Assembly: GCA_902542925.1 (NCBI GenBank)
Contig: CACBWF010000001.1
Coordinates: 41,569 to 105,568, forward strand
From: an uncultured Alphaproteobacteria bacterium
Lineage (GTDB): Bacteria; Pseudomonadota; Alphaproteobacteria; Methylaequorales; Methylaequoraceae
Direction: 5' to 3'
Length of the DNA: 64,000 nucleotides
Program-made: the position numbers and the translations under genes
The notes under the pieces: generated by a model
Database searches by the model: none
What the model was told of the DNA's origin: nothing
The model's input: only the letters and a program-made list of their open reading frames with translations
Shown here: positions 17,349 through 46,417 of the stretch, one piece after another
Layout: every line of letters begins with the position of its first letter
How positions within the stretch are numbered: the stretch's first letter is position 1

Positions 17349-18629
17349 ATGAAAATAAGTAGCAAATTATTTAATGAACAGCAATTGAATCTTCTCTCAA
17401 AACAAATGGAGAATATTCAATCTGTTCAATCTAAAATTGCATCTGGAAAAAATATAGTTTTTGCATCAGATGACCCCGTTGGTGCTGTTGAATTATCTGG
17501 GTTAAAAGATATAAACAGTAAGGTAGGGCAATATATTAATAATGCAGAACTTTCTTTGAGTAGACTTCAGATGATGGATGATACTCTGGAAGCAGCAAAA
17601 AATGTTTTTATTAGGTGTAACGAATTAGCTATTCAGGCAGCAAATGATGTTCTTGCACCTAGTGATAGAGAGTCTATTGCATTAGAGTTTGATGAATTAA
17701 AAAAGGAATTACTTTCTCTTGCAAATACGACAGATAGTACTGGAGCACATTTATTTTCTGGATTTAAAACTAAAACAACACCATTTGTAATGGATTCTAC
17801 AGGCACTGTAACCTATGAAGGAGATAGAGGTGTAATTAGTTTAGCAGTTTCAGAAAGTAGAATGTTAGAATCAACTATTGATGGTGGTACTGTTTTTAGA
17901 GATATTGTTACAAGTGACGGTGTTTCAACAGATTTATTTGAAGCAGTTGATAACATAAGTAGATCTATTCGAACGGCCTCCTCTGGAGTTGAAGCAGCAA
18001 AAGCGCCAGGTATAGCAAAAATAAATCTTACAAATGAAGATCCTGGAACATATAGTTTCACAATTACTTCTGGAAGCAAATCTGCAGACTTCTCAATTGA
18101 TATAACTGGTGCCGATTTATCGGATTTACGTACAGCAATTAACGCTGCTGATCTAGATATTACAGCAACACTTGAGGATTCAAATACAACTCTCAAACTT
18201 ACTAATACATTTAGTCAAGACATAACAATGAGTAATGTTAAAATTCCTGGTATTACAAAAGCACAAGAACAACCAACGTCTTTTTTTACTTTTCAACCAG
18301 TAGATGCATCTGGTAACAGTCTTGGAAACTCTCAAACCCTTTATGACTTTGATCAAACAATTGCAAGTCGACTAGACGAAATGGTTACTATTCAAAATCA
18401 TTTAGCTAATCAAAGAGCAAAAGTAGGAGCTAGATTAAATTCAGCACAAAGACAAACTGATATTATGAGGGAACGTCAACAGTTAATTAACAAAGATATA
18501 AGTGAATTAGCAGATGCAGATTTAGCTGAACTCGTTACACAACTACAATCACAATTAACAAGTCAAGAAGCAACCCAAAAAGCATTTGTAAGAATTTCTC
18601 AGTTAAATCTTTTTGACCATATTGGTTAA
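17349..18629 (+). CDS. flgL: Flagellar hook-associated protein 3 FlgL
   Basis: Flagellin-like N-terminus SKIASGKNIVFASDDPVGA. Position directly after flgK. Confidence 0.8.
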   Translation: MKISSKLFNEQQLNLLSKQMENIQSVQSKIASGKNIVFASDDPVGAVELSGLKDINSKVGQYINNAELSLSRLQMMDDTLEAAKNVFIRCNELAIQAANDVLAPSDRESIALEFDELKKELLSLANTTDSTGAHLFSGFKTKTTPFVMDSTGTVTYEGDRGVISLAVSESRMLESTIDGGTVFRDIVTSDGVSTDLFEAVDNISRSIRTASSGVEAAKAPGIAKINLTNEDPGTYSFTITSGSKSADFSIDITGADLSDLRTAINAADLDITATLEDSNTTLKLTNTFSQDITMSNVKIPGITKAQEQPTSFFTFQPVDASGNSLGNSQTLYDFDQTIASRLDEMVTIQNHLANQRAKVGARLNSAQRQTDIMRERQQLINKDISELADADLAELVTQLQSQLTSQEATQKAFVRISQLNLFDHIG

Positions 18630-19126
18630 AGAAGATCCTCAATTCCAAAATCTTTTTTTATGAGAGGTTCAAAAAATTCAAGACCTTTTTCATTTTTTAA
18701 GCTCCATCCAGAGGGTGCTTTTGGAATTGAACCTGCTCTTAGAGCAAAGCAATAAGCTTTAAATTCCTTAAAAAACTTATCTTCACTAAACTTTTTTTCT
18801 TTTGTACCGTCAAAAGCACTTCCAAACAGACCTTTAAGCTTTCTTGGTCCTTTTATACCATCATGTTTAAGAATGTAATATATAAAATGATTAACTCGTT
18901 CATGTGCTTCAAACTGAGCTCCTTTTAATTCCGCCATAAATCGAATAGATTCCTCAGCAGGCTTTGTTAACTCCTCAGTTGGTATTTCAATATATTCCTC
19001 TGAAAGACCCTCAGCATATTTCTTCCCAACCATTTCCAAGGAATATTGCTTGGTTAAAAAATCGTACATAACACATCCAACAGCTAAATCATACAAAAAG
19101 TGAGGACAATAAAGTTTTTCGCTCAT
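18626..19126 (-). CDS. Hypothetical protein encoded on the opposite strand between flgL and the flagellin genes
   Basis: 166 aa; no family recognised by eye. Confidence 0.4.
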   Translation of the reverse strand: MSEKLYCPHFLYDLAVGCVMYDFLTKQYSLEMVGKKYAEGLSEEYIEIPTEELTKPAEESIRFMAELKGAQFEAHERVNHFIYYILKHDGIKGPRKLKGLFGSAFDGTKEKKFSEDKFFKEFKAYCFALRAGSIPKAPSGWSLKNEKGLEFFEPLIKKDFGIEDLL

Positions 19127-19299: not shown

Positions 19300-20088
19300 A
19301 TGCCTTCAGTCTCGAATTTAGCCGTTGGTGCTGCAATGGCTGGTGCCGCTGCCTCTAAGGCTCGTCATCAAATGAACGAATCAATTGCAAGATTGTCAAC
19401 TGGTATTAGATCCATGTATGGTGGTGATGCTGCTGGTCAATCAATTGCAAACATGATTGGTGCCAAGGGTAAAAGTTTTGCTGTTGCTTCAAGAAATCTT
19501 GAAGACGGTATTTCTTACCTTCAAGCTGCTGAAAGTGTCCTCTTGGAAATGGCTGCACTAGCAACTAGATTGAGAGAACTTGGAACGCAGTACAATAATG
19601 TCGCTCTTATGACATCATTTGATCAAGTAGCTTTGAATAATGAAGCTGCAGCGATTGGTGATACAATGGATGCGATCCAAACAAATATGAAATTTAATGG
19701 AGTCTTCCTTGTTGGTGCGAGTCATAAATTTCAAATCGGTATTAATGATGCTAGTAGTACGTTAACCATAGGTGTAAACCAAACTATTGGTGTTCTAAAT
19801 ACTATAACTGGTGCTAACGGAGCTGATGCTTCTGCTGACACAGTTATTGGTCACATTGCGAAAGCACTTGGTAATGTTGCTGCCGGTATGGCTGGCTTAA
19901 AGGGTGCTCAAGCTGTTGCTGCTAACTCAGCTGCAAATTTAAATGCTGCTGCTGCAAGAATTCAGGATACTGATTACGCTCTTGAAACTGCTGCATTGAC
20001 AAAAGCTGCAATCTTAAACCAATCTGCGATGGCGATGGTAGCTCAAGCTAATGATGCGCAACAATCAATATTAACCGTTATACAATAA
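19300..20088 (+). CDS. Flagellin (short, divergent, 262 aa)
   Basis: N-terminus ESIARLSTGIRSMYGGDAAGQSIA. C-terminus ARIQDTDYALETAALTKAAILNQSAMAMVAQANDAQQSIL. RBS AGGAG. Confidence 0.8.
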   Translation: MPSVSNLAVGAAMAGAAASKARHQMNESIARLSTGIRSMYGGDAAGQSIANMIGAKGKSFAVASRNLEDGISYLQAAESVLLEMAALATRLRELGTQYNNVALMTSFDQVALNNEAAAIGDTMDAIQTNMKFNGVFLVGASHKFQIGINDASSTLTIGVNQTIGVLNTITGANGADASADTVIGHIAKALGNVAAGMAGLKGAQAVAANSAANLNAAAARIQDTDYALETAALTKAAILNQSAMAMVAQANDAQQSILTVIQ

Positions 20089-20108
20089 CATAATTTAGGA
20101 GAATAAAT

Positions 20109-20894
20109 ATGCCTTCTGTTTCAAATATAGCCGTTGGTGGAGCTCTAGCATCCGCTGCTGCTGACAAAGCCAGACACGGAATGAATGAGAGTATTGCTCG
20201 TTTATCAACCGGCGTAAGGGCAATGTATGGTGGTGATGCTGCTGGTCATTCCGTCGGAACGGTTCTTGTAGCTAAAAGTAAGAGTTTTTCGCAAGCTGTA
20301 AGAAATATCGAAGATGGTATTTCAATGCTACAGCAAAGTGAATCTTTACTACTTGAAGTTGCAAACTTACTAACCAGAGGAAGAGAACTTGGTATTCAAG
20401 ATGATGGATTAACAAGTGCTTTGGGTGATGCTAACCAGATTGCAGCAGCGAATGCTGAGATTATAGTGATCACAGACACAGTTGATACATTGTTAGCACA
20501 GACCAAATTTAATGGTAAACTTCTGGAAACAGGCAACTTTGCAATTGGTGTAAACGACGCAAGTACTACACATAGTGCTGGTCCCAACAAAGATATTACC
20601 GCCGTTGATGATGCTGACGCAACAGGCTTCGAATCTCAAGCTGATGTTGGTTTGCAAGAAGTTGCTGCGGCGTTAGGTAACGTAGCTGCGGATCTTGTTT
20701 CTTTGAAAGCATTCCAAGCGGTTGCTGCTAACACATCAGCTAACATGGCTGCTGCTGCTGCACGTGTTATGGATACTGATTTTGCCAAAGAGACTGCTGA
20801 TTTGACAAAAAATAGTATTTTAAATCAGGCAGCACTATCTATGGCAGCTCAGGCAAACGACGCTCAATCTGCTATATTGGCTGTACTACAATAA
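20109..20894 (+). CDS. Flagellin (short, divergent, 261 aa; paralog of the preceding gene)
   Basis: Same D0/D1 architecture; tandem with a 20-nt spacer. Confidence 0.8.
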   Translation: MPSVSNIAVGGALASAAADKARHGMNESIARLSTGVRAMYGGDAAGHSVGTVLVAKSKSFSQAVRNIEDGISMLQQSESLLLEVANLLTRGRELGIQDDGLTSALGDANQIAAANAEIIVITDTVDTLLAQTKFNGKLLETGNFAIGVNDASTTHSAGPNKDITAVDDADATGFESQADVGLQEVAAALGNVAADLVSLKAFQAVAANTSANMAAAAARVMDTDFAKETADLTKNSILNQAALSMAAQANDAQSAILAVLQ

Positions 20895-20921
20895 GGAAAC
20901 ACTACATATAGTATGTTTTAA

Positions 20922-20957
20922 GGGAAATGTGAGTAACTCACATTTCCCTTTTTTTTT
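20922..20957 (+). terminator. Rho-independent terminator after the second flagellin gene
   Basis: GGGAAATGTGAG-taac-CTCACATTTCCC hairpin followed by T9. Confidence 0.7.
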
Positions 20958-20972
20958 GGCATTGGATTTGCA
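20957..20972 (+). promoter_or_regulatory. Sigma-54 promoter (TGGCAT-N5-TTGCA) upstream of the 514-aa flagellin gene
   Basis: tggcattggatttgca lies ~40 nt upstream of the ATG at 21012. Confidence 0.55.
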
Positions 20973-21011
20973 GTTACTCTTTGTAAAAATTTATGTATAC
21001 AAAGAGAAATT

Positions 21012-22556
21012 ATGACAAAAATTAACACAACAATGGGGACAACAGGCGCGCTAAAAAGTCTCCTAAAAAATGAAAGAGAAATGCTTTCCGCAATGGAAAG
21101 AATTTCTTCAGGTAAAAGAATTAATCATGCAGGCGATGATGCTGCTGGTGCTGCTATTGCAGATAGAATGTCTGCTACTATTGGTGCATTAGATATGTCA
21201 ATTAGAAATGCATCTGATGTTTTATCAATGGCACAGGTTGCTGAAGGAGCGCTAGATGAAGCTTCTGCTGCATTACAAAGAATAAGAGAATTAGCAATTC
21301 AAGCTGCAACAGATATTATTAATGGTGAGCAAAAAGTTTATTTACAAACTGAAGTTGATCAATTACTTGATGAGATGGACCGTGTAACAAGAGATACAAC
21401 TTTTAATGAAATTGCTGTATTAGACGGAACTTTTGCAGACAGACGTTTTCAAATTGGTTCTCATGAAAGAGAAAAAGCAGTAATTTCTATTGCTAATATG
21501 AGAAATACTTCGATTGGTGCCTATCAAGCTACTACTGAAGGAACTAGTGGTCAAGCAAACCTAGCACAAAATGCTTTTCTTGCAGCGAGTAAATCAGCAG
21601 CAACTAGTAAAGTTACAACTTCCGATGCATTCACTATTACAGGTCTTTTAGGATCAAATGAATTAACACCAACGGCTGGTGAAACTGCAAAATCATTGAC
21701 TAACAGAATCAATGATTCTTTTGACAAAACAGGTGTTTCTGCAACGGCTTCTACTCAGGCTAGACTAAGAATGAAGACAAATTCAGCTGGTGATCACGTT
21801 GTTACCATGAAAGTTTATGGAAAAAACACAACAGCTCAGTCAATTTCTGCAACTGTAACTTTAACAACTGCATATACAGGAAATGATCTAACAGATCTTA
21901 GAGACCAGTTTAATTCTTTCAGTTCAGTAACAGGTATTACAGCGACTTTAAGTGCTGATAGTAACCAAATCGTTCTAGTACAAGATGAAGGTGAAGATAT
22001 TGTCATAGAAGATTTAGATTTTGCAAGTGTTACAGATGCAAATACATTAATGGAAGTAACAGGACTTAATTTTAAACAAGATACAACTGGAACATCAGTT
22101 GAAGTTCAGGATGCTAGCCAAACTAATGATAGTTTTAGATTAGGTGGAGAAATTACTTTCCATTCATCTCATACTTTTTCAATTGTTGGTAATGCAGATG
22201 GAGGATTATTTGAGTCGTCTGCAGCAACTTCAAGTTTAAATTCAGTTTCAACTATTGACATCAAAACAATGGCAGGTGCTGTTGATGCACTAAAGGTAGT
22301 TGACAGAGCATTAGATAGAGTTCACATGGAAAGAGCAAAATTTGGTGCCATTATGAGTAGAATGAATGTTGTTGTTGATAATTTAACTAATGTTTCTCAA
22401 AACCAAAGAGCTTCAAAAGCTAGAATTATGGATGCAAATTTCGCTTCAGAATCTTCAAGATTAGCGAAATCTCAAATTCTGCAGCAATCTGCATTAAATA
22501 TGATTGCCCAGGCTTCAAGAACAATGCAAAATGTATTAGTTTTATTCCAAGGATAA
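21012..22556 (+). CDS. Flagellin (canonical FliC/FlaA type, 514 aa)
   Basis: N-terminus ERISSGKRINHAGDDAAGAAIADRM. C-terminus KSQILQQSALNMIAQASRTMQNVLVLFQG. Confidence 0.9.
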   Translation: MTKINTTMGTTGALKSLLKNEREMLSAMERISSGKRINHAGDDAAGAAIADRMSATIGALDMSIRNASDVLSMAQVAEGALDEASAALQRIRELAIQAATDIINGEQKVYLQTEVDQLLDEMDRVTRDTTFNEIAVLDGTFADRRFQIGSHEREKAVISIANMRNTSIGAYQATTEGTSGQANLAQNAFLAASKSAATSKVTTSDAFTITGLLGSNELTPTAGETAKSLTNRINDSFDKTGVSATASTQARLRMKTNSAGDHVVTMKVYGKNTTAQSISATVTLTTAYTGNDLTDLRDQFNSFSSVTGITATLSADSNQIVLVQDEGEDIVIEDLDFASVTDANTLMEVTGLNFKQDTTGTSVEVQDASQTNDSFRLGGEITFHSSHTFSIVGNADGGLFESSAATSSLNSVSTIDIKTMAGAVDALKVVDRALDRVHMERAKFGAIMSRMNVVVDNLTNVSQNQRASKARIMDANFASESSRLAKSQILQQSALNMIAQASRTMQNVLVLFQG

Positions 22557-22597: not shown

Positions 22598-24277
22598 ATG
22601 GCCGAAACTGAAATTCTTTCCAAAATTGGCGTAGGTTCTGGTCTAGACACAACCGCATTGATTAAAGCACTCGTTGACGCAGATAGTGCAGCTGAAACCT
22701 CACAGTTAGAAAAAGATGAAGAAAAAACAAATGCTAAAATTTCAGCATTAGGAACTCTTAAATCTAATCTTAAACAATTTAATAATATCATTAAAAGTAT
22801 ACAAACCTCAGAATCATCTGGGTTTGTTGGAAACTCTTCAAATACCGCAACCGCAACTTTAACAGCTTCGGGTGACGCTGCTGGTGCAGACATAGATTCT
22901 TCATTGACAGTTACAACATTAGCATCCTCACATACATTGACCGGACCTGCATATAGTGCAACAACCTCAACAGTTGGTGCAGGAAGTATCTCAATAGCTT
23001 TTGGAACTTGGAGTGCAGACCCTACTTCCGGTGGGGGTCAGAGTCATACTGCTAATTCTCAATCAACGATTTCTGTGAATACTACTTCAAGTACAACTCT
23101 AAAGGATTTAAGAGATTTAATAAATAATGCTGCAACAGATTCAGATAGTGATGGAGAAAGAGATGTATTAGCATCAATAATTTATGACGGAACAAATTAC
23201 ATGCTTATGTTAAAAAGTGAGTCAGGAGCAAGTAATGAAATGAAGGTAACGGCTTCAAGTGATCTTGCTAATACTATCAGTGGTGTGTCGTATAATTACA
23301 ATGCAACAACTTCAAATATGACACAAAGAGTTTCAGGAATAAACTCTGCGTTCACAGTTGACGGGATTTCCATGACAAGATCTTCAAATGAGATTAAAGA
23401 TCTTTTTGATGGTTTTACTCTTGACTTATTAGCAACAAATTCTTCTGCAATCAGAGTTTCAAGCCAAGTTGATTTAACAAAGATAAAAGCATTAATGAAT
23501 GATTATGTTTTAACATATAACGAGGTTATGAGCTTGATTGATTCACTTACTACATCTGGAGATACAGCTCTTGGTGGAAGTAATGAGGCTGGCGCTTTGA
23601 ATGGCAACTCATTGTTGATGTCAATTAAATCTCAACTTCGAGGTTTATCAACGAAATCAATTGGCGGTTATGAAGGTGGTCCTTACTTTTTATCACAAAT
23701 GGGTATTAAAACCGAAAGAGATGGATCCTTGACTCTAAATCAATCAGATTTGGAAGAATCTTTCGATTTTAATCCGGAAATGGTACATGCTTTTTTTTCT
23801 GATCAATTGAAAACCGATACTAATGGAATTTCAGTAACTAGTTTTGAGCTTCTTAACACTAAACCAGGAACTTATGCTTTTGCAACTAATGGAAGCACTC
23901 ACACAATTGGTGGAGTAAACGCTACTAAAAATGGTACAAAATATAGTGTATCTTCAGGTGATCCAAATGGTTTAGTATTGAATGTAGCAAATGGAATAAC
24001 AAGTGGTAATGTGTATTATGGAAAAAGTTTTCTTTCACTTGCTCATGAAACAGTTGAAGTATTTACTAAATTCGATTCTGTGATTGATACCCAAGTTGAA
24101 AGCGGTAGATCTAGAATAAAGGATTTAGCAGAAAAAAGACTCAGATTAGAAGATAGAATTGAAAAGTTAACTCAAAGATATCAAAAACAGTATGCTAATA
24201 TGGAGTCAGCTGTTGCTGGTCTAAACGAAACTGGAAATATGCTCACAGCTCTTCTTGGTAATAATGATGATGATTAA
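22598..24277 (+). CDS. fliD: Flagellar filament cap protein FliD
   Basis: N-terminus IGVGSGLDTTALIKALVDADSAAETSQL...KISALGTLKSNL. 559 aa. Follows the flagellin gene. Confidence 0.85.
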   Translation: MAETEILSKIGVGSGLDTTALIKALVDADSAAETSQLEKDEEKTNAKISALGTLKSNLKQFNNIIKSIQTSESSGFVGNSSNTATATLTASGDAAGADIDSSLTVTTLASSHTLTGPAYSATTSTVGAGSISIAFGTWSADPTSGGGQSHTANSQSTISVNTTSSTTLKDLRDLINNAATDSDSDGERDVLASIIYDGTNYMLMLKSESGASNEMKVTASSDLANTISGVSYNYNATTSNMTQRVSGINSAFTVDGISMTRSSNEIKDLFDGFTLDLLATNSSAIRVSSQVDLTKIKALMNDYVLTYNEVMSLIDSLTTSGDTALGGSNEAGALNGNSLLMSIKSQLRGLSTKSIGGYEGGPYFLSQMGIKTERDGSLTLNQSDLEESFDFNPEMVHAFFSDQLKTDTNGISVTSFELLNTKPGTYAFATNGSTHTIGGVNATKNGTKYSVSSGDPNGLVLNVANGITSGNVYYGKSFLSLAHETVEVFTKFDSVIDTQVESGRSRIKDLAEKRLRLEDRIEKLTQRYQKQYANMESAVAGLNETGNMLTALLGNNDDD

Positions 24278-24284
24278 AAGAAAT

Positions 24285-25037
24285 CTACCATCCCATTATT
24301 AGATTAATAATTTTTTCTCTTTTTTCTTCTAAAAACTTTGTCGGATTAATTGCTCTATCTTTTGAAAAATCTTTCATGATATCATTCTTTGTTTTTGAAA
24401 ATCCGGAATGTATACCTGCCTCATTTCTATCTCGTGCAAAGTGTTCTAAGAAAGAAGTGTTAGATTGGATGAAGGGAACTTTTAATTGGGCTGGCCAATA
24501 ATAATCAAATCCGTATATAGTTTCAAAAAATGGATTATGATTTAAAAAATTTACCATTATTTCAACCATATTTCTATCATAACATTGGCTTACTCCAGGA
24601 CATGTTTTTCTCAAACTAAAATCTTTATTTTGTTCAATAATATTTTCTGATTTATTATGAAATACACTATTAAACAGCCCGATTGGAAATTTTTTTTTTT
24701 GTTTTTTAGAAATATTATAAAAATATCTAAGTTGATTAAGAAACTGTGGATCATGAATAACATCATTATCAGTAATATAAAGCAAATCAAAGTTCTTATA
24801 TATATAACAAAAATCTCTAAAGCATCTTGCTCTTGATCTTTCTATCCCTCCCCTAACTCTGAATCTCAAAATATTTTGAGAATATTTTTTGAGAAATTTT
24901 TCATTATATTCTGTTGATGCATCATCATAAATTAATAATTGAGAATTTTTATCCAATAATTGGGTTAAATTCTCTAGACAAAGCTTGGTAATATTTTTTC
25001 TATTATACGTTGATAAAGCAACAAGAATTTTTTCCAT
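24285..25037 (-). CDS. Glycosyltransferase family 2-like protein
   Basis: VALSTYNR...YDDAST pattern typical of GT-A/GT2 enzymes. Confidence 0.55.
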   Translation of the reverse strand: MEKILVALSTYNRKNITKLCLENLTQLLDKNSQLLIYDDASTEYNEKFLKKYSQNILRFRVRGGIERSRARCFRDFCYIYKNFDLLYITDNDVIHDPQFLNQLRYFYNISKKQKKKFPIGLFNSVFHNKSENIIEQNKDFSLRKTCPGVSQCYDRNMVEIMVNFLNHNPFFETIYGFDYYWPAQLKVPFIQSNTSFLEHFARDRNEAGIHSGFSKTKNDIMKDFSKDRAINPTKFLEEKREKIINLIMGW

Positions 25038-25091
25038 AAACTAAACATTTTTTTATATTAGACGTTTATAGATTTAGTATAATATTAATCT

Positions 25092-25451
25092 TTGAATAAA
25101 GGTATAGTTATGGAAATTTTTACTGAAAAAATGGTTAACCAGATTAAGATTATCGAAAAACTTCTTAATCAGCTTGAAAAAGATCTTAACCATTTAAATA
25201 AACCAAGTAAACTAGACAACGTCTCAGAACTAGTTGAAAGAGTTGGTAAAATTACAACTGTTTTAAAAACTACTCTTGATTTAGAAAAGGGTGGCGACAT
25301 TGCAAAAAATTTACTTCATCTTTATAATCACATTCAATATGCTGCTCAAAGAATCAAAGAACACGAAGATTATTCAGCAGTCAAGAGTGCTCATAAAGTA
25401 GTAAAAGAAATTAATGAAGGATGGTCTAAGCTTTCAACTGCTGCTGCTTAG
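25092..25451 (+). CDS. fliS: Flagellin-specific chaperone FliS
   Basis: LDLEKGGDIAKNLLHLYNHIQYAAQRIKEHEDYSAVKSAHKVVKEINEGW matches the FliS core. Confidence 0.8.
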   Translation: MNKGIVMEIFTEKMVNQIKIIEKLLNQLEKDLNHLNKPSKLDNVSELVERVGKITTVLKTTLDLEKGGDIAKNLLHLYNHIQYAAQRIKEHEDYSAVKSAHKVVKEINEGWSKLSTAAA

Positions 25452-27031
25452 CTTAAAAATTTTTTTACTTCATTATTTATATGTGACCAATCATTGAATT
25501 TTGATTGTCTAACCATTTTTACAGACTTATACCATGGGGTTTTGGAATCTTTCAAACCCCATCTCCAATCTGGTACTTTTGGAAGTAGTAATAATGTTTT
25601 CTGTCCAAGAGTGCCAGCTAAATGAACTAATGACGTATCTATTGTAATCACCTTATCCATTAAACTTAAAACCAAGGCTGTTTGCGAAAAGTCTTCAAGC
25701 TTATTATCAAGGACTTCTACATTTGAAAATTTTTTTAAAAATTTATGTTCCTCATTTGAAACACCTTTTTGTAATACAAAAAATTTACAATCATTATTTT
25801 TGAATATTTCTGAAAATTTTTCGATATGAATTGATCTATTTAGGTGCCTTTTATGTAGAGGGTTCCCAGACCATGAAACTCCAATATTCAATTTACTTTT
25901 ATCAATCCTTTTAGTTAAAAACTTATTAAAATTTACATTAAAACTCTTAAGCCTTTCGACATCAACAATAAGTGGATCAATAATTTTTTTGCTATTTTCC
26001 CAAAATAGATAGGGTAAGCTCATCATAAATATTCGATAGTCAAATGAAGTTTCATCAACATCATCAAATTTGTCTGAAATATTTACACTATCCAGTTCTG
26101 GACAAGATTTAAAAAAATTAATTGTCGATTTGTGTGCAGCAAAACTTACTTTATAATTTTTCTCAAGAAATGATTTTAAGAATCTTGATGCCATAAAATC
26201 GTCGCCATAGCCTTGTTCGCGATGTATTACAATTTTTAGATTTTTTTCTTTAAGATTCTTTTTAGTAAGTTCTGGATATCCATCTCCACCATATTTTACT
26301 AAAAATTTTTCTTTATCTCTATGTTTTTCGTATAATTCAAGGCCTTTATTATAATTACCTTGCAACAATTCAAGTAGAGATAAGTTGAAATTAGCAAAAA
26401 AATTATCTTCTTTTTCTAATGTTTTTTTATAAAATTCTTTTGCTTTTTTAAATTGAGATGTTTCAAAGAAATAAACACCTAAGCCTAAGTGAGCTAGAGC
26501 ATTTTCTTTATCTAAATGCATACAAGTAATAAAACATTCTTTAGCCATTTCAGGTTCTTGTGTTGCAATATAGGCTATACCTAATTGGGCCCAATTGTTT
26601 GGCATTTGTGGTAATTTATGTACACAGTCTGATAAAATATCTTTAGCTTTATACACATCTGCATAATCATGCATTAACATACATGCATAATCAAATGCAA
26701 TCATGTAGCATTCTGGACAATATTGATAACCTTTTTCTAAGATTAAAAATCGTTCTTCTTTCATTTTTTCATGTTCGTAAATCATAGAAAGTTGTAAATA
26801 AGCTTCTTCAAACGATTTGTCATTTTCTAATATTTTCTTAAGTTTTTCTATTGCATCATCATAATTACAAAATTCAATATCATCTAATGCTAAGACGTAA
26901 TTAGCATATGAACTATCCTTTTTTTTATTCAGAATTTCTTCAGCTAGATCTCTTGCTTTTGTAAGATGATTTGTGGAGTCCGGATTCGATATAAATTCTT
27001 TTAAGTTATTTTCTAAGGTTTCAAGATTCAT
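25448..27031 (-). CDS. TPR-repeat protein with C-terminal GT9-like (heptosyltransferase-fold) glycosyltransferase domain; FlmG-like flagellin glycosyltransferase candidate
   Basis: N-terminal TPR repeats. C-terminus NIGVSWSGNPLHKRHL...ITIDTSLVHLAGTLGQKTLLLLPKVPDWRWG resembles the GT9 DSGxxHLAxALG region. Confidence 0.55.
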   Translation of the reverse strand: MNLETLENNLKEFISNPDSTNHLTKARDLAEEILNKKKDSSYANYVLALDDIEFCNYDDAIEKLKKILENDKSFEEAYLQLSMIYEHEKMKEERFLILEKGYQYCPECYMIAFDYACMLMHDYADVYKAKDILSDCVHKLPQMPNNWAQLGIAYIATQEPEMAKECFITCMHLDKENALAHLGLGVYFFETSQFKKAKEFYKKTLEKEDNFFANFNLSLLELLQGNYNKGLELYEKHRDKEKFLVKYGGDGYPELTKKNLKEKNLKIVIHREQGYGDDFMASRFLKSFLEKNYKVSFAAHKSTINFFKSCPELDSVNISDKFDDVDETSFDYRIFMMSLPYLFWENSKKIIDPLIVDVERLKSFNVNFNKFLTKRIDKSKLNIGVSWSGNPLHKRHLNRSIHIEKFSEIFKNNDCKFFVLQKGVSNEEHKFLKKFSNVEVLDNKLEDFSQTALVLSLMDKVITIDTSLVHLAGTLGQKTLLLLPKVPDWRWGLKDSKTPWYKSVKMVRQSKFNDWSHINNEVKKFLS

Positions 27032-27139
27032 TTTTAAACTTTCTAAATTGGTTTACTAATCCCAAAATACTTCAATATTTATGCCAATTATTAGTTTTTT
27101 TTGGCATAAATATTGAAACAATACATTTAAGGTTTTTTA

Positions 27140-28042
27140 ATGATAAGTGTAATAATACCAACATATAATGGCATAGAAAAAGGGCTTGAAAGGTCGATAA
27201 GATCTGTATTAATGCTAAAAAACATAGATGAAGTTATTATAGGAATTGATGGTTCTGATGATACAAGTAATGAATTATGTAATGAACTACAAAAAAAAGA
27301 TAAAAGAATAAAGTACTTTGAAAATAAAAAAAATATTGGATGGGGAAAAACAGCTGCCATTTGTATATCAAAGGTAGGATGTAATCGAACTATAATTCAT
27401 AGTGATGATGATTGGATGCTTCCAGAAATGAATAATCTCATTGAATTTTCTTTAAAAAATAATTTAGATCTAGCATATAGTAAGTATGCTATTGGGAATG
27501 ATCAGACAAAAAAGATCAATATTTTTAGTAATCCTACATGGGAAAAAAAAAATTATATTGGTGAAAAAGATGAGTTTCATGAACTTTTATTACATGACTG
27601 TTATATCGGAAGATCTATAATAAAAACCGAAATTTACAAAAACACTTTTAATCTTAAAGCATTAGAAAACTTAAATAGAGAATTTGGAGAAGAATTTACA
27701 GCAATCGACTATAATTTATTTTTAGACTTATCTTCACAAGATTCTAAATTTGGGTATTTAAACCAAATTACAAATATATGGACCCAACGTGCAAACCAAG
27801 AAACTGGAATGTTTTATAATACCTCGGGAAAACATTTAGGCGAATCTTCTTATCTTTTTAATAAATATTACGATGAAAAAAAACACAGGAAAGATTGGGA
27901 TTTTTTAGGAAGTGTATTTAATCGAGTTAAATATTTATATACGTTTGCAAAAAAAAAAAATAAAAAAATTAATCCGATTTATGAAAATCATTTTAAAGTA
28001 TTTTCAAAAAAAATTAGTTCTTTAAGAGGTTCAAATGTTTAA
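27140..28042 (+). CDS. Glycosyltransferase family 2
   Basis: N-terminus MISVIIPTYNG...IIGIDGSDD. Confidence 0.6.
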   Translation: MISVIIPTYNGIEKGLERSIRSVLMLKNIDEVIIGIDGSDDTSNELCNELQKKDKRIKYFENKKNIGWGKTAAICISKVGCNRTIIHSDDDWMLPEMNNLIEFSLKNNLDLAYSKYAIGNDQTKKINIFSNPTWEKKNYIGEKDEFHELLLHDCYIGRSIIKTEIYKNTFNLKALENLNREFGEEFTAIDYNLFLDLSSQDSKFGYLNQITNIWTQRANQETGMFYNTSGKHLGESSYLFNKYYDEKKHRKDWDFLGSVFNRVKYLYTFAKKKNKKINPIYENHFKVFSKKISSLRGSNV

Positions 28043-29114
28043 AAAAAATTGTCATTTACTTATTACAGGTGGTACAGGGTCATTTGGAAAAGCAATGTTA
28101 GAAAAAATATTATTCAACAAAAATATTTCAAAAATTTCAATACTTAGTAGAGATGAAAAAAAACAAGATGATTTGAGAAAACAATTTAATAACAAAAAGT
28201 TAAATTTTATTTTATGTGACATAAGAGACAGAGAAAATGTTTTTTCTTCAATAAATGATGTTGATTATATTTTTCATGCGGCTGCTTTAAAGCAAGTACC
28301 AAGTTGTGAATTTAATCCAATGGAAGCAGTAAAAACAAACATTTTAGGTGCATTAAATGTAATAGACGCTTCAATAAGAAATAATGTAAAAAAAATTGTG
28401 CTATTAAGTACAGATAAAGCTGCCTATCCAATTAACACTCTAGGGTGTAGTAAAATGTTAATGGAAAAAATTATGTTTGCTAAAACCACAGAAAAGTCAA
28501 AAAACTCAAAAACAATCATTTGTGCAATTAGATATGGAAATGTGCTCTTTTCAAGAGGTTCTGTTGTTCCACTTTTTTTAAAACAACTTAGTGACAATAA
28601 ACCATTAACGATTACAAATCCAAGTATGACAAGATTTTTAATTTCACTATCAGAAGCAATAGATTTGGTTTTATATGCTCTATCACATGGTAAAAATGGT
28701 GATTTATTCATCAGAAAATCAAAAGCCGCTACAATTTTAAATATAGCTAAAGCATGTAGTTTAATGTTTAACAAAGAGTTGAATATAAATTACATAGGAA
28801 TAAGGGAAGGTGAAAAAATGGATGAAACACTTGCAACTAGAGAAGAAGTTGCTAAGTCAGAAGATAGAAATACTTATTTAAGAATACCTCATGAACAATC
28901 TAAAAATTTTAATAAATATTTTACGGAAGGAACTATAACTAAAGAAATTTTTCCATTCACATCTAAAAATACAAAACAACTTTCAATCGAAGAAATTATA
29001 GGTATATTTAAGGCAATTCCTGAAATACAACAAATTTTAAATGTAAATAAACATATGATAAATCTTCCAGTGAATGTAAGCGAAAGTTTTACTAATTCGC
29101 TCCTTATCAATTAG
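28035..29114 (+). CDS. UDP-GlcNAc 4,6-dehydratase of the PseB/LegB/CapD (FlaA1) family
   Basis: N-terminus LLITGGTGSFGK; polysaccharide-biosynthesis SDR family. Confidence 0.7.
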   Translation: MFKKNCHLLITGGTGSFGKAMLEKILFNKNISKISILSRDEKKQDDLRKQFNNKKLNFILCDIRDRENVFSSINDVDYIFHAAALKQVPSCEFNPMEAVKTNILGALNVIDASIRNNVKKIVLLSTDKAAYPINTLGCSKMLMEKIMFAKTTEKSKNSKTIICAIRYGNVLFSRGSVVPLFLKQLSDNKPLTITNPSMTRFLISLSEAIDLVLYALSHGKNGDLFIRKSKAATILNIAKACSLMFNKELNINYIGIREGEKMDETLATREEVAKSEDRNTYLRIPHEQSKNFNKYFTEGTITKEIFPFTSKNTKQLSIEEIIGIFKAIPEIQQILNVNKHMINLPVNVSESFTNSLLIN

Positions 29115-29874
29115 TATTTAATACATCTCCGGGAGATAGGTATTTTTTTTCTTTAGATTTTAAATAATAAGCTTGTTCATAAGGTGGAAAATAACATGCC
29201 CTTACAATTCTATCAATTTTCTTACAATTCCATTTTGGATCAATAATTCTAAGTTTTTCAATTGAATCTTTACTATAAAATTTACCCTGTTTTTTAATTT
29301 TCTTTTTCGGAATGTTATTTTTAATAATTGCTAAAAAAAGTTTTATCAAAATTTCTTCTGCGCATTTTAAAGATTTTTTGTATAAACTTTTAGCGGTTTC
29401 AGATTTACTAATTTTAGTTGAAGATTCAAAAGCTATATCTCCCTCATCAACTTGCTCTGAAACCCAATGAATTGTTGAAGTATACTTTTTATCATTATTT
29501 GCTATCGCAAAATTAATGGAATTATAGCCTTTATAATTTGGAAGTTTTGCATTGTGAAGATTTAGGCATTTATTACCAACTAGTTCTAATATTTTATTTG
29601 ATAAAATCCATTTATGCTGGATTGAAATTAAATAATCTGGAGATAAACTTTTAATTTTTAATGAGATGAGTTTTTCGTTACGTTTTTCATTAGATATAAA
29701 AAAAGTATTTTTAAGGGTATTATTTTTTAAAAATTTTTTTTTTACTTTTGAGTTATAGAAATTTTTATTAGATACAAATCCCAATATCTCTATTTCTTTT
29801 TTAAAATATTTTTTGATTATTCTTAGAGCTATCTCAGTTGTTTTTTTATCGCCAAGTAAGATTATTTTTTTCAT
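29107..29874 (-). CDS. Sugar N-formyltransferase (formyl_trans_N family)
   Basis: Motif NLHNAKLPNYKG corresponds to the HxSLLPxxxG formyltransferase signature. Confidence 0.6.
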   Translation of the reverse strand: MKKIILLGDKKTTEIALRIIKKYFKKEIEILGFVSNKNFYNSKVKKKFLKNNTLKNTFFISNEKRNEKLISLKIKSLSPDYLISIQHKWILSNKILELVGNKCLNLHNAKLPNYKGYNSINFAIANNDKKYTSTIHWVSEQVDEGDIAFESSTKISKSETAKSLYKKSLKCAEEILIKLFLAIIKNNIPKKKIKKQGKFYSKDSIEKLRIIDPKWNCKKIDRIVRACYFPPYEQAYYLKSKEKKYLSPGDVLNTN

Positions 29875-29880
29875 AGGAAA

Positions 29881-30294
29881 TTAATTAATTTCTTTAGAAA
29901 TAGTATCGGGATCATTTGGATCAAATTCTTTTGATGCATAAGCAACCATAATTGCCTCTTCTTTATTTTTATTAATTATTGTATGAGCTGTTCCTGGACC
30001 AACATAAACAAGTTGAGGGCGTTTTGATTTTAATATTTTTTTTATTTTTTTGCCGTTTGCTTTCATTAATAAAGTAACCGTACCTGCAACACAACAAAAC
30101 CATTCTCCTTTTCTTTCGTGATAATGATCCCCTCTCCTAAAGCCAGGCATAACGCTATAGACATATATCTGTCCACCATTAGGTATTTTTTCTGACTTAA
30201 ATCTTAGTGCTTCAAACAGAGCACCTCTACTATCTGAGTATAATTTTAAGTCTTTAATTTTATAATCTATATTTTCTGTAAAGTGCATATCCAT
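29881..30294 (-). CDS. Cupin-fold WxcM/FdtA/QdtA-like sugar 3,4-ketoisomerase
   Basis: 137 aa. GDHYHERKGEWFCCVAGT resembles FdtA-type ketoisomerases. Confidence 0.5.
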   Translation of the reverse strand: MDMHFTENIDYKIKDLKLYSDSRGALFEALRFKSEKIPNGGQIYVYSVMPGFRRGDHYHERKGEWFCCVAGTVTLLMKANGKKIKKILKSKRPQLVYVGPGTAHTIINKNKEEAIMVAYASKEFDPNDPDTISKEIN

Positions 30295-30299
30295 TTTTT

Positions 30300-31442
30300 T
30301 TACCCTACCAAATTCATGGAATTAGCACCCCAAACTTCTTTTTTAATGATTTTTGACATACCTAAAATAATTCTTACAATTTTTTTTGAAACTTCTTTTT
30401 GTATGTAGGCTTCGGGTGGTGAAGAGAAATTAAAATTTATTGGTTTTTTGCAAATTATTCCTAACATCCTTAAAACATCATCTTGGTCTAAACCTGTGAT
30501 TGGACAATATCCTGCTTCAATTGACTCTTGCTTTTCAGTAGACTTTCTAATTGCTATTGCAGGAAATTTTAGTACAGCTGAATCTTCATGAATGGTTCCA
30601 CTATCAGAAATTACACATTTCGACTCTTTTTGTAGTTTTATAAAATCAACTAAACCAAAAGGTTTGTGCCATATTATTTTTTGGTTTGATTTTTTAATTA
30701 GACCTGAATTAATTAATTTAGTTTTTGTTCTTGGATGAGTGCTCACTACAATTGGAATTTTATATTTTTTTATGATAGCATTAAAAGTTTCTACAAGTTT
30801 CTTCAAAGAGTCTACACTTTCAACATTTTCCTCTCTGTGGATACTTGCTGTAAAAAATTGATTGGTATTGAGACCAAGTTTATTTAAAATTTTACTTTTT
30901 TCAAACTTGAAACCTAAATCGTTATATACTTCAATAATTGGACTCCCAACCACATAAATATTTTTTGGGTGAATACCTTCTCTTAATAGATTTCTTCTGC
31001 TTTGTTCGCTATAAGCAATATTAACATCGCTAGTATGATCAATAATCCTTCTATTTAGTTCCTCAGGTACTTCGTTATCATAAGAGCGGTCTCCAGCTTC
31101 AATGTGAAAAATTGGAATTTTTTTTCTCTTTGCTGCAATTGCACTTAGACCTGAATTTGTGTCACCTAGAATCAAAACTGCATCAGGATTTTCAACGTCC
31201 ATTACTTCCCCAGTACTGCTTATAATTTTTGCTATTTGATCTTGAATGTTTTGAGATTTTGATTTTAAGTTATAATTTGGTAGTCTTAATCCTAAATCTT
31301 TAAAAAAGATACGGTTAAGATTATAGTCATAATTTTGTCCAGTATGTACCAATATATGATTACAATGTTCGTCTAATTCTTTTATTATTTTTGCTAAACG
31401 AATAATTTCTGGTCTTGTACCCAGTATTGTCATTATTTTCAT
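30300..31442 (-). CDS. UDP-N-acetylglucosamine 2-epimerase family protein (WecB/NeuC/LegG type)
   Basis: N-terminus MKIMTILGTRPEIIRLAKII is characteristic of the 2-epimerase family. Confidence 0.7.
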   Translation of the reverse strand: MKIMTILGTRPEIIRLAKIIKELDEHCNHILVHTGQNYDYNLNRIFFKDLGLRLPNYNLKSKSQNIQDQIAKIISSTGEVMDVENPDAVLILGDTNSGLSAIAAKRKKIPIFHIEAGDRSYDNEVPEELNRRIIDHTSDVNIAYSEQSRRNLLREGIHPKNIYVVGSPIIEVYNDLGFKFEKSKILNKLGLNTNQFFTASIHREENVESVDSLKKLVETFNAIIKKYKIPIVVSTHPRTKTKLINSGLIKKSNQKIIWHKPFGLVDFIKLQKESKCVISDSGTIHEDSAVLKFPAIAIRKSTEKQESIEAGYCPITGLDQDDVLRMLGIICKKPINFNFSSPPEAYIQKEVSKKIVRIILGMSKIIKKEVWGANSMNLVG

Positions 31443-32560
31443 GACACAGCCTCTTTTACTTTTTCAATTATAAAATTTTGGGTTTGTTTACTGACCCACC
31501 ATCCACAAGGAATTGCGATTTCTGACTTATCAAACCAGTCTGTATTTGGAAGCTGAAGTTTTTTATTAGACTTGAACATAGAATATTTATCATTTCTAGC
31601 ATGAATTTGTCCGCTTTCTATATTACACCTGTTGAGAGCTTTAATTAATTTATCTCTGTTTTTGACAAGTATTGTATAACCCCAATAAGTTTGAAAATCA
31701 TTTGGGTTTCTTTCAAGAATTTTAATTCCTTTGGTTTTTCTAAATGCTTCATCATATCTTCTTCCATTTTGATGAAATTTATCAAGAATCCAGTCAATAT
31801 ATTTCATTTGAGACAAACCAATTGATGCAGCAATATCATTCATATTTCCTTTAAATCCCCATTCTGGAATATCTTCTTTCCATACATTTCTCCCTTCTCT
31901 ATTATCCCTATCTATTCCAAACCATTTCAATTTTTTAGCTTTTATGTAATCTTTTTTGTTTCCGCATAAAAGAGCACCCCCGTCTCCTGTTGTAATGTGT
32001 TTTATTGCTTGGAAAGAAAAACAAATAAAATCTCCAAAAGATCCAATTTTTTTATTATTTTTTTTTGCTCCGAATGCATGAGCAGCATCTTCAACAATTC
32101 TTATTTTATTATTATATCTCTTTAGAGCATATATATCGTCTAAGTTGGCTGGTGATCCTTCTTTATGGAGTATATAAATGGCTCTTGTCTTTTTAGTTAT
32201 TAGTGGCCTAATATTTTCAGCTGTGACCATTCCTGTTTTTCTACAAATATCTGCCCAAATTGGTTTTGCTCCAAGTGATACTATAGGAATATTCCCAGCA
32301 ATACATGTCAGAGGCGTCGTAATTACTTCGGTATTTGGTCCAACACCGGCTATTTTATAAGCCATTGTAATTGCCATTGTACATGAGTTTGTCAATACTA
32401 CATGTGGATTTTTAAGATATTTAGATATTTTTCTACTAAAAGCATTTACTTTTTTACCTTCAGCTAGAAAACCGCTGTAAAGTGTATTTTTAACATTTTT
32501 TTCTGCTTCTTTTGGAACAAAAACTTTAAATAAAGGTATTCTTTTTTTTTGTTTAATCAT
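31439..32560 (-). CDS. DegT/DnrJ/EryC1/StrS family PLP-dependent sugar aminotransferase
   Basis: LTNSCTMAITMA...FSFQAIKHITTGDGGAL, with the Lys in the PLP-binding context. Confidence 0.75.
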   Translation of the reverse strand: MIKQKKRIPLFKVFVPKEAEKNVKNTLYSGFLAEGKKVNAFSRKISKYLKNPHVVLTNSCTMAITMAYKIAGVGPNTEVITTPLTCIAGNIPIVSLGAKPIWADICRKTGMVTAENIRPLITKKTRAIYILHKEGSPANLDDIYALKRYNNKIRIVEDAAHAFGAKKNNKKIGSFGDFICFSFQAIKHITTGDGGALLCGNKKDYIKAKKLKWFGIDRDNREGRNVWKEDIPEWGFKGNMNDIAASIGLSQMKYIDWILDKFHQNGRRYDEAFRKTKGIKILERNPNDFQTYWGYTILVKNRDKLIKALNRCNIESGQIHARNDKYSMFKSNKKLQLPNTDWFDKSEIAIPCGWWVSKQTQNFIIEKVKEAVS

Positions 32561-32671: not shown

Positions 32672-33448
32672 GTGAGTAATACGCTATCATCATTCCCAGT
32701 CCCAATTTTTTCTCTGAAAAAATCTGAGAGGAATATTAGAGAAGCAATCTCTAGGATCTCTACTGGTATAAATGTACTTGGTGGAAATGATGCAGCTAGA
32801 CATGCTTTGGGGACGACTTTGAAAGCAGATGGGAAGAGTTTTGAGGCAGCCTCTAGTAGCATTGAGAACTCATTAAGTTTATTAAGTCTAGTAGAAGAAG
32901 CTTTATTTGAACTTAACTCTCTTGCAACAAGACTCAAAGAAACCGGTAATCAAGCTTCACTTTCTACAAATACTTCAGAGGATACAGCGGCATTAAATGC
33001 TGAAGCAGTCAATATTAGTGATACAATTGATTCAATAGTTTCATCCCTTACCTTCAATAATATTAATGTCTTAGATACGTCTGCAAAAAGTTTTACTATA
33101 GGTATAAATGATGTGGGAACGACAGCTACAATGCAAACTACTACAGGTATCGCAGCAACAAGCATAACAGGTGCTACAAATGCGAATACTTCTGCTGCAA
33201 CTACAATCGGAGAAATAACACGTTCACTAGGCTCTGTAGCGGGAAGTATACAATCTTTTAATGGTTATCTTAATATTGCCGAATCTTCTTCAGCTGCTCT
33301 TATAGCTCAAGCTGCAAAATTACAAGATACAGATTTTGCCCAAGAGACTGCAAGATTAGCAAAAAATGCTATATTAAAAAATTACAGTTTAGCTATGGTT
33401 GCCCAGGTTCAAAATGCAGACGAAGATCAACTTAAATTATTAGCTTAG
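32672..33448 (+). CDS. Flagellin (short, divergent, 258 aa; GTG start)
   Basis: N-terminus EAISRISTGINVLGGNDAARHALG. C-terminus KLQDTDFAQETARLAKNAILKNYSLAMVAQVQNA. RBS AGAGG. Confidence 0.7.
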   Translation: MSNTLSSFPVPIFSLKKSERNIREAISRISTGINVLGGNDAARHALGTTLKADGKSFEAASSSIENSLSLLSLVEEALFELNSLATRLKETGNQASLSTNTSEDTAALNAEAVNISDTIDSIVSSLTFNNINVLDTSAKSFTIGINDVGTTATMQTTTGIAATSITGATNANTSAATTIGEITRSLGSVAGSIQSFNGYLNIAESSSAALIAQAAKLQDTDFAQETARLAKNAILKNYSLAMVAQVQNADEDQLKLLA

Positions 33449-33508: not shown

Positions 33509-33940
33509 ATGAAAAAAAATGAATATAAAACACAAGTTGAGACAAGTAAAACTCTTCTAAAAAAAGAAACAAACTTAAATAACGTAGTTCGAAATGATAT
33601 ACCAAAATATGAAATTATAAAGCAGCTAATTGTAGGTCTGGAAAGTGAATTTGTAAATTTAAAAAAAATAGTTTCGGTTGACTTTGAAGTAAATGACGAA
33701 GCAGTAGAAAAAGCTGAAAAAATATCAAAAATTGCTTTTGCGTTGCAGAGTTGTCTTAATGTTGATAAGGGTGAGGAAATAGCTGTAAATTTAACGTGGT
33801 TATACAGATTTGTTAGATATAGTTGTAAACGAATTATTGATAATGAAGATTTAACATATGTTAAACCAGCACACCTAGTAGCAAGAAATCTTAAAGAGGG
33901 TTGGTTAAATATGCCCGAAGAATCAAGACAAATAAATTAA
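33509..33940 (+). CDS. fliS: Flagellin-specific chaperone FliS (second paralog)
   Basis: LNVDKGEEIAVNLTWLYRFVRYSCKRIIDNEDLTYVKPAHLVARNLKEGW. Confidence 0.7.
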   Translation: MKKNEYKTQVETSKTLLKKETNLNNVVRNDIPKYEIIKQLIVGLESEFVNLKKIVSVDFEVNDEAVEKAEKISKIAFALQSCLNVDKGEEIAVNLTWLYRFVRYSCKRIIDNEDLTYVKPAHLVARNLKEGWLNMPEESRQIN

Positions 33941-36757: not shown

Positions 36758-36769
36758 TAAAGTCCTAAC

Positions 36770-37615: not shown

Positions 37616-37643
37616 GGCTTAAAATTTGCTAAATTAATAGTCT

Positions 37644-39344: not shown

Positions 39345-39347
39345 GTC

Positions 39348-40031: not shown

Positions 40032-40087
40032 GAAAATATAAAATCTAATACTTTGAGTGAATAGAAAAATAAAGACTTTTATACATA

Positions 40088-42833: not shown

Positions 42834-42881
42834 AATTGTTATCTTTTTGGTGGCATATATATTGCTCAATTACTTAAAAGT

Positions 42882-44342: not shown

Positions 44343-44383
44343 AATTTAGGCACTGTAATTGCAATAATAAATAAAGGTTTTTT

Positions 44384-46410: not shown

Positions 46411-46417
46411 ATATACT

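Follow-up and report, generated by a model that had tools for sequence, protein, structure and literature searches.

A candidate flagellin O-glycosyltransferase of TPR-plus-GT9-like design in an uncultured marine alphaproteobacterium

Does the modular design of FlmG, the flagellin glycosyltransferase of Caulobacter, also serve flagellin outside the Caulobacterales? The question is raised by a gene that lies among flagellar genes in 64,000 nucleotides of DNA from an uncultured Alphaproteobacteria bacterium (GenBank assembly GCA_902542925.1, contig CACBWF010000001.1, positions 41,569 to 105,568 of the forward strand; this whole stretch is referred to below as the window). The gene, called the target here, was described in an initial annotation made from the sequence as encoding a FlmG-like enzyme that adds a nonulosonic acid to serines or threonines of flagellin. 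We consider it probable that the target is a cytoplasmic flagellin O-glycosyltransferase of FlmG-type modular design from a lineage outside the Caulobacterales, with a nucleoside diphosphate (NDP)-type sugar the likelier donor. The gene and its two halves, one made of tetratricopeptide repeats (TPR) and one a glycosyltransferase (GT) domain, map as follows.

25448 to 27031, minus strand: target gene, ATG start, 527 amino acids; candidate flagellin O-glycosyltransferase with TPR and a GT9-like GT-B domain
26291 to 27031, minus strand: N-terminal TPR superhelix, residues 1 to 247 (Pfam TPR matches, AlphaFold2 helices, Foldseek)
25451 to 26290, minus strand: C-terminal GT-B domain, GT9-like, residues 248 to 527 (fold matches, GT9 signature, invariant columns)

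The initial annotation had placed the open reading frame (ORF) exactly and had assigned it an N-terminal TPR array followed by a glycosyltransferase domain, the modular architecture of FlmG. This architecture was borne out by Pfam, by the AlphaFold2 model, and by the GT-B fold. In Pfam, TPR_2, TPR_12, TPR_19, and TPR_1 all scored above the gathering score between about residues 28 and 236. The full-length AlphaFold2 model, built from 33 homologues, had a mean predicted local distance difference test (pLDDT) score of 91.7 and a predicted template modeling (pTM) score of 0.85, with 15 paired helices over residues 3 to 247 followed by an alpha/beta domain. The TPR half resembled the TPR regions of OGT and SPINDLY as well as consensus TPR proteins in Foldseek searches. 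Since alignments with orthologues span 100% of the 527 residues, the gene model is sound. Neither a transmembrane segment nor a signal peptide was detected in the protein (maximum 19-residue Kyte-Doolittle mean, 1.36), and because the N-terminus is polar and no hydrophobic segment is present, the protein is expected to be cytoplasmic.

The claim that the C-terminal domain (CTD) is a GT9-like GT-B domain held for the fold, with sequence scores remaining below threshold. Modeled on its own, the CTD formed a complete two-lobe GT-B with a pLDDT of 90.4. The top eight Foldseek matches of this model among Protein Data Bank (PDB) structures were GT9 enzymes (3tov, 1psw, 2h1h, 2gt1, 2h1f, and 6dfe). 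The best of these was the Veillonella GT9 enzyme 3tov (E = 5.7e-8; template modeling [TM] score, 0.59), and the ADP-heptose:lipopolysaccharide heptosyltransferases WaaF (1psw) and WaaC (2h1h, 2gt1, and 6dfe) were also top-ranked. For 3tov, WaaF, and WaaC, E values lay between 6e-8 and 4e-7 and TM scores between 0.54 and 0.62. Structures of the protein heptosyltransferase TibC (4rb4 and 4rap) ranked after these eight; with 3tov, 1psw, 2h1h, and 4rb4 taken together, the ranges were 6e-8 to 1e-5 and 0.55 to 0.62. By sequence, the target matched PF01075 (Glyco_transf_9) with 18.2 to 18.9 bits and an E value of about 1e-3, not reaching the gathering score of 22, and the NCBIfam model of heptosyltransferase I, TIGR02193, with 19.4 bits against a cutoff of 185 (E = 5e-4). 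A full-length target profile run against PDB sequences was dominated by TPR proteins, and a CTD-only profile was used afterwards. No PDB sequence was found at an E value of ≤10 by this profile of 20 C-terminal domains. Thus, GT9 membership is not demonstrable at the sequence level.

The best Foldseek matches of the full-length model were SPINDLY and OGT (E = 1e-12 to 1e-8). This resemblance reflects the layout of TPR plus GT-B common to both rather than membership in GT41. The GT41 family was rejected as a home for the target: PF13844 (Glyco_transf_41) gave no match, and the 50 matches listed for the CTD alone were led by GT9 enzymes and contained nothing from GT41.

Conserved motifs of the CTD also point toward GT9. 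The three motifs that had been named in the initial annotation were all located in the target, with KRHL starting at residue 394, IDTSLVHLAG at residue 464, and DWRW at residue 488. The stretch I-D-T-S-L-V-H-L-A-G (residues 464 to 473) corresponds to the GT9 signature D-[TS]-[GS]-x-x-H-[LV]-[AT]-A. In profile alignments, the family consensus V-I-T-v-D-T-S-v-a-H-L-A-G was aligned to V-V-S-V-D-T-G-L-S-H-L-T-A of WaaC (WaaC 245 to 279) and to I-V-T-N-D-S-G-L-M-H-V-A-A of WaaF, with P-D-W aligned to P-D-F of WaaF (WaaF 250 to 295). The aligned stretch, with D261, T262, and H266 in WaaC, is the signature of the C-lobe donor site of GT9. The remaining motifs of the CTD are EQGYGD (residues 272 to 277), R399-S, and PDWRW (residues 487 to 491). 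Both IDTSLVHLAG and DWRW are invariant or nearly so across the family. Among 33 family members, E272, Q273, G274, G276, D277, D465, H470, D488, and W491 are retained, invariant or nearly so, which makes them candidate catalytic residues.

These motifs bear on the idea that the target is a noncatalytic factor that binds flagellin or FliS, a regulator or cochaperone with a degenerate GT-B fold. The subthreshold GT9 score in Pfam is in line with such a role, and some flagellin glycosyltransferases, GmaR for example, double as regulators. However, the donor-site and N-lobe motifs remain invariant or nearly so down to 21 to 25% identity, as is typical of an active enzyme, and the CTD is modeled confidently as a complete two-lobe GT-B. 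We regard a noncatalytic role as highly improbable.

How close is the target to FlmG itself? FlmG (CCNA_01524) has 596 amino acids, with TPR in residues 1 to 313 and a GT-B domain in residues 309 to 596 (PMC7591256). Its TPR domain binds flagellins in bacterial two-hybrid (BACTH) assays (PMC7591256), and its GT-B domain selects the pseudaminic acid (Pse) or legionaminic acid (Leg) donor (PMC7591256; bioRxiv 10.1101/2022.03.25.485807). The enzyme, also called FlbA, is known from Caulobacter crescentus/vibrioides and Brevundimonas subvibrioides (PMC7591256; bioRxiv 10.1101/2022.03.25.485807), and a 2023 preprint describes FlmG enzymes as "confined to the Caulobacterales." In our literature search, no TPR-GT9-type flagellin transferase besides FlmG was found described. 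By analogy with the two-hybrid data, the TPR half of the target would be the module that binds the acceptor, flagellin.

To obtain an FlmG sequence, we used the published cloning primer NK-74, whose match in Caulobacter vibrioides DSM 9893 begins a 596-amino-acid ORF (L001:1354-3144). The primer, the length, and the names of close relatives in Caulobacter, which are called "flagellar protein FlbA" or "TPR protein," identify this ORF as FlmG. With FlmG as the query, the 120 matches listed contained close Caulobacter orthologues only; they supplied the motifs of the clade but no sequences bridging it to the target, and no Brevundimonas FlmG was among them. The target and FlmG were 21% identical in BLASTP (residues 208 to 526 versus 261 to 590; E = 2e-10). 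A comparison of the CTD family profile with FlmG by hhalign gave a probability of 99.84% and an E value of 2.2e-30 over 274 columns (FlmG 299 to 594), and FlmG carries an equivalent subthreshold PF01075 match at the corresponding position. By these alignments, the target CTD is truly homologous to the GT domain of FlmG over its full length.

We then compared motifs in an alignment of the target orthologue group (P0001 to P0014), 15 distant relatives, a paralogue of the target encoded elsewhere in the window, and 11 Caulobacter FlmG proteins. The two sets of motifs differed as follows, the first state in each line being that of the target, its orthologues, the paralogue, and most generic relatives (P0019 is one of the few exceptions).

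Donor-site signature: D-[TN]-[ST]-x-x-H-[LI]-A-G; in the FlmG clade, S-N-A-T-x-N-L-A-G
Motif after the donor signature: P-D-[WFY]-R-W; in the FlmG clade, A-x-x-W-[TP]-R-L-G
Arg-Ser pair after W-S-G: present; lacking in the FlmG clade
Arg-Gln pair near the C-terminus: present; lacking in the FlmG clade

The motifs E-Q-G-x-G-D, L-Q-x-G, D-L-V-I, x-L-A-G, and P-W-Y-P were common to both sets, and the family-invariant residues D465, T466, and H470 are replaced in FlmG. The target domain scored 239 bits on a hidden Markov model (HMM) of the generic family versus 43.5 bits on an HMM of the Caulobacter FlmG clade. On the latter, generic members scored 67 to 93 bits and the paralogue, which has the LQYG motif of FlmG, scored 85.5 bits, all higher than the target. 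In a neighbor-joining tree, the target clade fell among generic members, away from FlmG. Judged by motifs, scores, and tree, the target is not an orthologue of FlmG and does not belong to its clade; FlmG is a divergent, characterized twig of a large, otherwise uncharacterized family, with the target on another branch. The designation "FlmG-like" is thus apt for architecture and for homology of the GT domain but not for orthology.

What ties the target to flagellin is its gene neighborhood, which comprises the following features.

22598 to 24277, plus strand: fliD, filament cap (FliD_N, FliD_C; position kept in all orthologue loci)
24285 to 25037, minus strand: small GT-A/GT2-like glycosyltransferase, 250 amino acids (PF00535, E = 3.7e-6; DDAS and DND motifs)
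25092 to 25451, plus strand: fliS, flagellin export chaperone (PF02561, E = 1.2e-12), convergent with the target
32672 to 33448, plus strand: Ser/Thr-rich short flagellin, 258 amino acids (listed ORF start GTG; central third, 34.7% Ser plus Thr)
19300 to 22556, plus strand: three further flagellins of 262, 261, and 514 amino acids, other possible acceptors, with an orthologous set in locus L007

The target is convergent with fliS, as had been claimed, and the two genes share bases of their stop codons (TAG of fliS, 25449 to 25451; target TAA on the minus strand, 25448 to 25450). Adjacency had also been claimed for both fliS and fliD. It is correct for fliS; fliD lies two genes off, with the GT2-like gene and fliS in between. 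The unit consisting of fliD, a GT2-like gene of about 250 codons, fliS, and a TPR-GT gene was found in five of five loci (the window, L002, L007, L008, and L009), and the other four keep the orientations of the window, including the convergence of fliS and the TPR-GT gene. The TPR-GT proteins of these four loci are only 42 to 44% identical to the target. A more distant relative (37% identity; L004, 6691 to 7938, minus strand) adjoins a FliB_C-type gene and flgG-H-I. The FliB_C-type product resembles flagellin lysine methyltransferases, another flagellin modification context.

The Ser/Thr-rich flagellin stands out among the possible acceptors. Its central Ser-plus-Thr content of 34.7% compares with about 15% in the tandem flagellins at 19300 and 20109. 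In L002 and L009, a flagellin of about 260 amino acids lies next to the TPR-GT gene, about 100 nucleotides from its start. These two flagellins are orthologues of the one at 32672 to 33448 (57 to 58% identity; 31 to 32% Ser plus Thr in the central part). The flagellin encoded at 32672 to 33448 is most likely the preferred acceptor of the target and is put forward as a candidate.

The gene neighborhood also bears on an alternative in which the substrate is something other than flagellin, namely FliD, hook-associated proteins, the giant FlgK of the window, or a nonprotein acceptor, and the small GT2 enzyme is the real flagellin transferase. GT2-type flagellin transferases are known, such as GmaR of Listeria and that of C. 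difficile. The GT2-like orthologues, which occupy the same position in four loci, are 61 to 65% identical and thus more conserved than the TPR-GT proteins (42 to 44%). Most members of the very large CTD family are, moreover, not flagellar, as judged from the five distant members sampled. On the other side, the placement of the TPR-GT gene between fliS and the Ser/Thr-rich flagellin is kept in the divergent loci L002 and L009, the sole characterized relative, FlmG, glycosylates flagellin by way of its TPR domain, and a TPR fusion speaks for an acceptor that is a protein, not a lipid or a glycan. We consider another acceptor unlikely.

Which sugar would the target transfer? Between the target and the Ser/Thr-rich flagellin lies the following cluster.

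27140 to 32560: six-gene sugar cluster (Pfam, NCBIfam) encoding a GT2 enzyme, an FnlA/PseB-like UDP-GlcNAc 4,6-dehydratase, a formyltransferase, a cupin, a WecB-type 2-epimerase, and a PseC/DegT aminotransferase

This cluster is not found at that position in L002, L007, L008, or L009, and relative to these loci it appears as an insertion between the TPR-GT gene and the Ser/Thr-rich flagellin. In NCBIfam, the better-scoring model for the dehydratase was FnlA, at 377 bits, with PseB at 307 bits and both below cutoff (407.75 for PseB). The aminotransferase scored 209 bits on PseC against a cutoff of 423.5. The epimerase passed the cutoff of the nonhydrolyzing WecB (246 versus 210 bits) and scored 88 bits on NeuC. 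These assignments suggest that the cluster makes a sugar of the UDP-2-acetamido-4-formamido-2,4,6-trideoxyhexose type. Around the paralogue we found RmlA-like, RmlB, and WecE-type proteins, the last a dTDP-4-amino-4,6-dideoxyhexose transaminase; RmlB and WecE were above cutoff. An ATP-grasp ligase, methyltransferases, and a sulfotransferase are encoded there as well. Both sugar pathways of the island are of the NDP-6-deoxy-aminohexose kind, one UDP-based and one dTDP-based.

The initial annotation had proposed transfer of a nonulosonic acid, and this proposal found no support. No NeuB/PseI/LegI synthase, cytidine monophosphate (CMP)-nonulosonate synthetase, or PseG was found with Pfam and NCBIfam in the window, where nearly all ORFs of at least 110 amino acids were scanned, or in the four orthologue loci. 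A strict equivalent of FlmG would attach CMP-activated pseudaminic or legionaminic acid, perhaps an N-formyl variant, to flagellin; the neighboring PseB-like, PseC-like, and formyltransferase proteins would supply the early steps, with PseG, PseI, and PseF encoded elsewhere in the genome. Such an enzyme would have the same kind of architecture and a homologous GT domain, the neighbors do score on the PseB and PseC models, and pse genes are scattered in Caulobacter, too. These points are offset by the subthreshold PseB and PseC scores, the preference of the dehydratase for FnlA, and the agreement of the epimerase with WecB rather than NeuC. Further, genes for a NeuB-family synthase, a CMP-transferase, or PseG were not found in any of the five loci, the sugar cluster is an insertion that the orthologue loci lack, and generic members lie closer to the FlmG clade than the target does, which also carries a different donor-site signature. 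We consider a strict FlmG equivalent somewhat less likely still than an enzyme with another acceptor. An NDP-sugar is the more likely donor than a CMP-nonulosonate, given the sugar pathways of the island and the GT9 donor signature, which the target has kept and FlmG has lost.

The preferred reading, a flagellin O-glycosyltransferase with an NDP-type donor, can be stated as a sequence of steps. The TPR superhelix would capture unfolded or chaperone-free flagellin before export. The GT9-like GT-B domain would then take a sugar from its nucleotide-activated donor and attach it to Ser/Thr hydroxyls of the flagellin center, which is surface exposed; the Ser/Thr-rich paralogue is the most plausible substrate. 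The target would act within a module composed of fliD, the small GT2 gene, fliS, the TPR-GT gene, and the Ser/Thr-rich flagellin. The small GT2 enzyme and the glycosyltransferases of the variable island would probably extend or diversify the glycan.

Several observations weigh against this reading. An exhaustive search with the 283-residue domain returned 32,400 representative clusters, counted at 50% identity, at an E value of ≤1e-3 and 23,894 at ≤1e-10. A flagellar context was absent in all five of the distant members sampled (P0021, P0079, P0058, P0087, and P0036), and because of this, membership in the CTD family alone predicts nothing about flagellin. In the N-lobe, D277 of EQGxGD is in register with the catalytic Asp13 of WaaC; the hhalign score of this lobe is not significant (probability, 2.5%). 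Neither sugar genes nor a Ser/Thr-rich flagellin lie beside the TPR-GT gene in L007 and L008, and flagellin glycosylation could instead be initiated by the conserved GT2 enzyme of the module. As for the donor, the locus tags of Caulobacter (PMC7591256) place its pse genes at sites scattered apart from flmG, so the local absence of nonulosonate genes is not proof. The preference for an NDP-sugar draws only on which genes lie nearby and on the retained motifs. It stays an inference because the sugar clusters vary by locus and the GT2 and GT25 enzymes of the island could themselves use those sugars.

Apart from FlmG, the CTD family is essentially uncharacterized. The possibility that the whole family is flagellar was rejected, with the five sampled distant members lying outside flagellar loci. 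Many of its proteins are 1,000 to 3,100 amino acids long and contain two to six copies of the domain (e.g., P0275 to P0423).

The window encodes a second protein of the same design and further copies of the flagellin chaperone.

37644 to 39344, plus strand: paralogous TPR plus GT9-like protein, 566 amino acids (TPR Pfam matches), in the same glycosylation island
36770 to 47509: neighborhood of the paralogue, with GT25, a sulfotransferase, an iron-redox enzyme, a methyltransferase, an ATP-grasp ligase, a 486-amino-acid ORF, and RmlA/WecE/RmlB
25092 to 25451, 33509 to 33940, and 36022 to 36462: three FliS paralogues, 22 to 34% identical to one another

The paralogue is 30% identical to the target over the whole CTD (BLASTP, E = 5e-29). 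The presence of three FliS paralogues and four flagellin genes of three types suggests dedicated pairings of chaperone and flagellin. L002 and L009 likewise have several copies of fliS. Between two of the fliS genes of the window lies a gene for a CLC-type chloride channel with CBS domains (34178 to 35692, plus strand). This arrangement is kept in L002 and L009, and the channel is a strange companion to find so consistently in a flagellar locus. Upstream of the flagellins, a giant FlgK of 1,689 amino acids is encoded at 12231 to 17300 (plus strand), with a Flagellin_IN motif in an insert; its homologue in L007 has 1,789 amino acids. A 166-amino-acid ORF between flgL and the flagellins (18626 to 19126, minus strand) has no Pfam or NCBIfam match, and a 167-amino-acid gene occupies that place in L007.

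The host lies outside the groups from which FlmG is known. Marine (Tara) contigs, the longest of 1.55 Mb, carry near-identical copies of the target gene. For the IMPDH of the window, the nearest named relatives, 71 to 75% identical, were proteins of uncultured organisms labeled "Rickettsiales bacterium" or "Alphaproteobacteria bacterium," the first cultured relative was Telmatospirillum (65%), and no Caulobacterales were found among the IMPDH matches. The GC content of the window ranges from about 25 to 39%. It is 35 to 39% between 19000 and 24000, which contains flagellins and fliD, and 24 to 28% in the island at 24000 to 30000 and 36000 to 54000. The higher value of the flagellin and fliD stretch probably results from Ala/Gly-rich flagellin, and the difference is also consistent with a variable island.

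What would a flagellin-modifying role of the target mean? It is plausible to see the target as an extension of the known FlmG system, unsurprising in kind. Only two classes of cytoplasmic glycosyltransferase dedicated to flagellin have been described, and FlmG is one of them. New here with respect to FlmG is a flagellar-linked relative from another branch, with a heptosyltransferase-type donor site and surrounded by NDP-hexose genes, in an abundant, genome-streamlined marine alphaproteobacterium. If the target glycosylates flagellin, the TPR plus GT9-like design would be more general for flagellin glycosylation than has been recognized. The pair would then offer a natural comparison for donor-specificity residues (D-T-S-x-x-H versus S-N-A-T-x-N), as well as a functional foothold in a family of about 32,000 clusters of uncharacterized bacterial TPR-glycosyltransferases.

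A broader interpretation has three parts, which we offer jointly and tentatively, as a combination that is possible and rather doubtful. First, the target would stand for another lineage of cytoplasmic flagellin O-glycosyltransferases with the TPR-GT9-like design, whose recruitment was independent of Caulobacterales FlmG and whose donor is an NDP-6-deoxy-aminohexose or another non-nonulosonate sugar. Second, the target and its paralogue, the three FliS proteins, and the distinct flagellin classes would form parallel, insulated glycosylation channels. Third, the TPR-GT9-like family of about 30,000 clusters would consist largely of cytoplasmic protein O-glycosyltransferases in which the TPR picks the substrate.

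Among known systems, Maf proteins (MAF_flag10) share with the target a presumed role and a genomic neighborhood, and some also bear a TPR domain (2023 preprint). The Maf catalytic domain is GT-A-like (bioRxiv 10.1101/2022.03.25.485807), in contrast to the GT-B of the target, and scans of the window ORFs, the target included, gave no MAF_flag10 match. The GT9 enzymes WaaC, WaaF, and 3tov have the GT-B fold and the C-lobe donor signature in common with the target CTD but no TPR fusion, and the acceptor of WaaC and WaaF is Kdo2-lipid A, whereas that of the target is presumably a protein.

In the GT41 enzymes OGT and SPINDLY, as proposed for the target, a TPR superhelix delivers the substrate protein to the catalytic GT-B domain. 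TibC/BAHT (4rap and 4rb4) has a GT9-like GT-B fold similar to that of the target CTD (E = 5e-6; TM score, 0.56 to 0.60) and O-glycosylates a secreted or surface protein in the cytoplasm before export (PMC4358343), the order of events proposed here. Unlike the target, TibC lacks a TPR domain, is an iron-binding dodecamer with a different mode of substrate recognition, and modifies an autotransporter passenger domain rather than flagellin (PMC4358343).

FlmG remains the nearest parallel. Like the target, it combines an N-terminal TPR array with a C-terminal GT-B domain of the same superfamily, is soluble, and is encoded among flagellar genes. Unlike the target, it has lost the GT9 donor signature, and identity between the GT domains is only about 21%. 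The hosts of FlmG are Caulobacterales, whereas the target belongs to an uncultured low-GC marine alphaproteobacterium outside that order.

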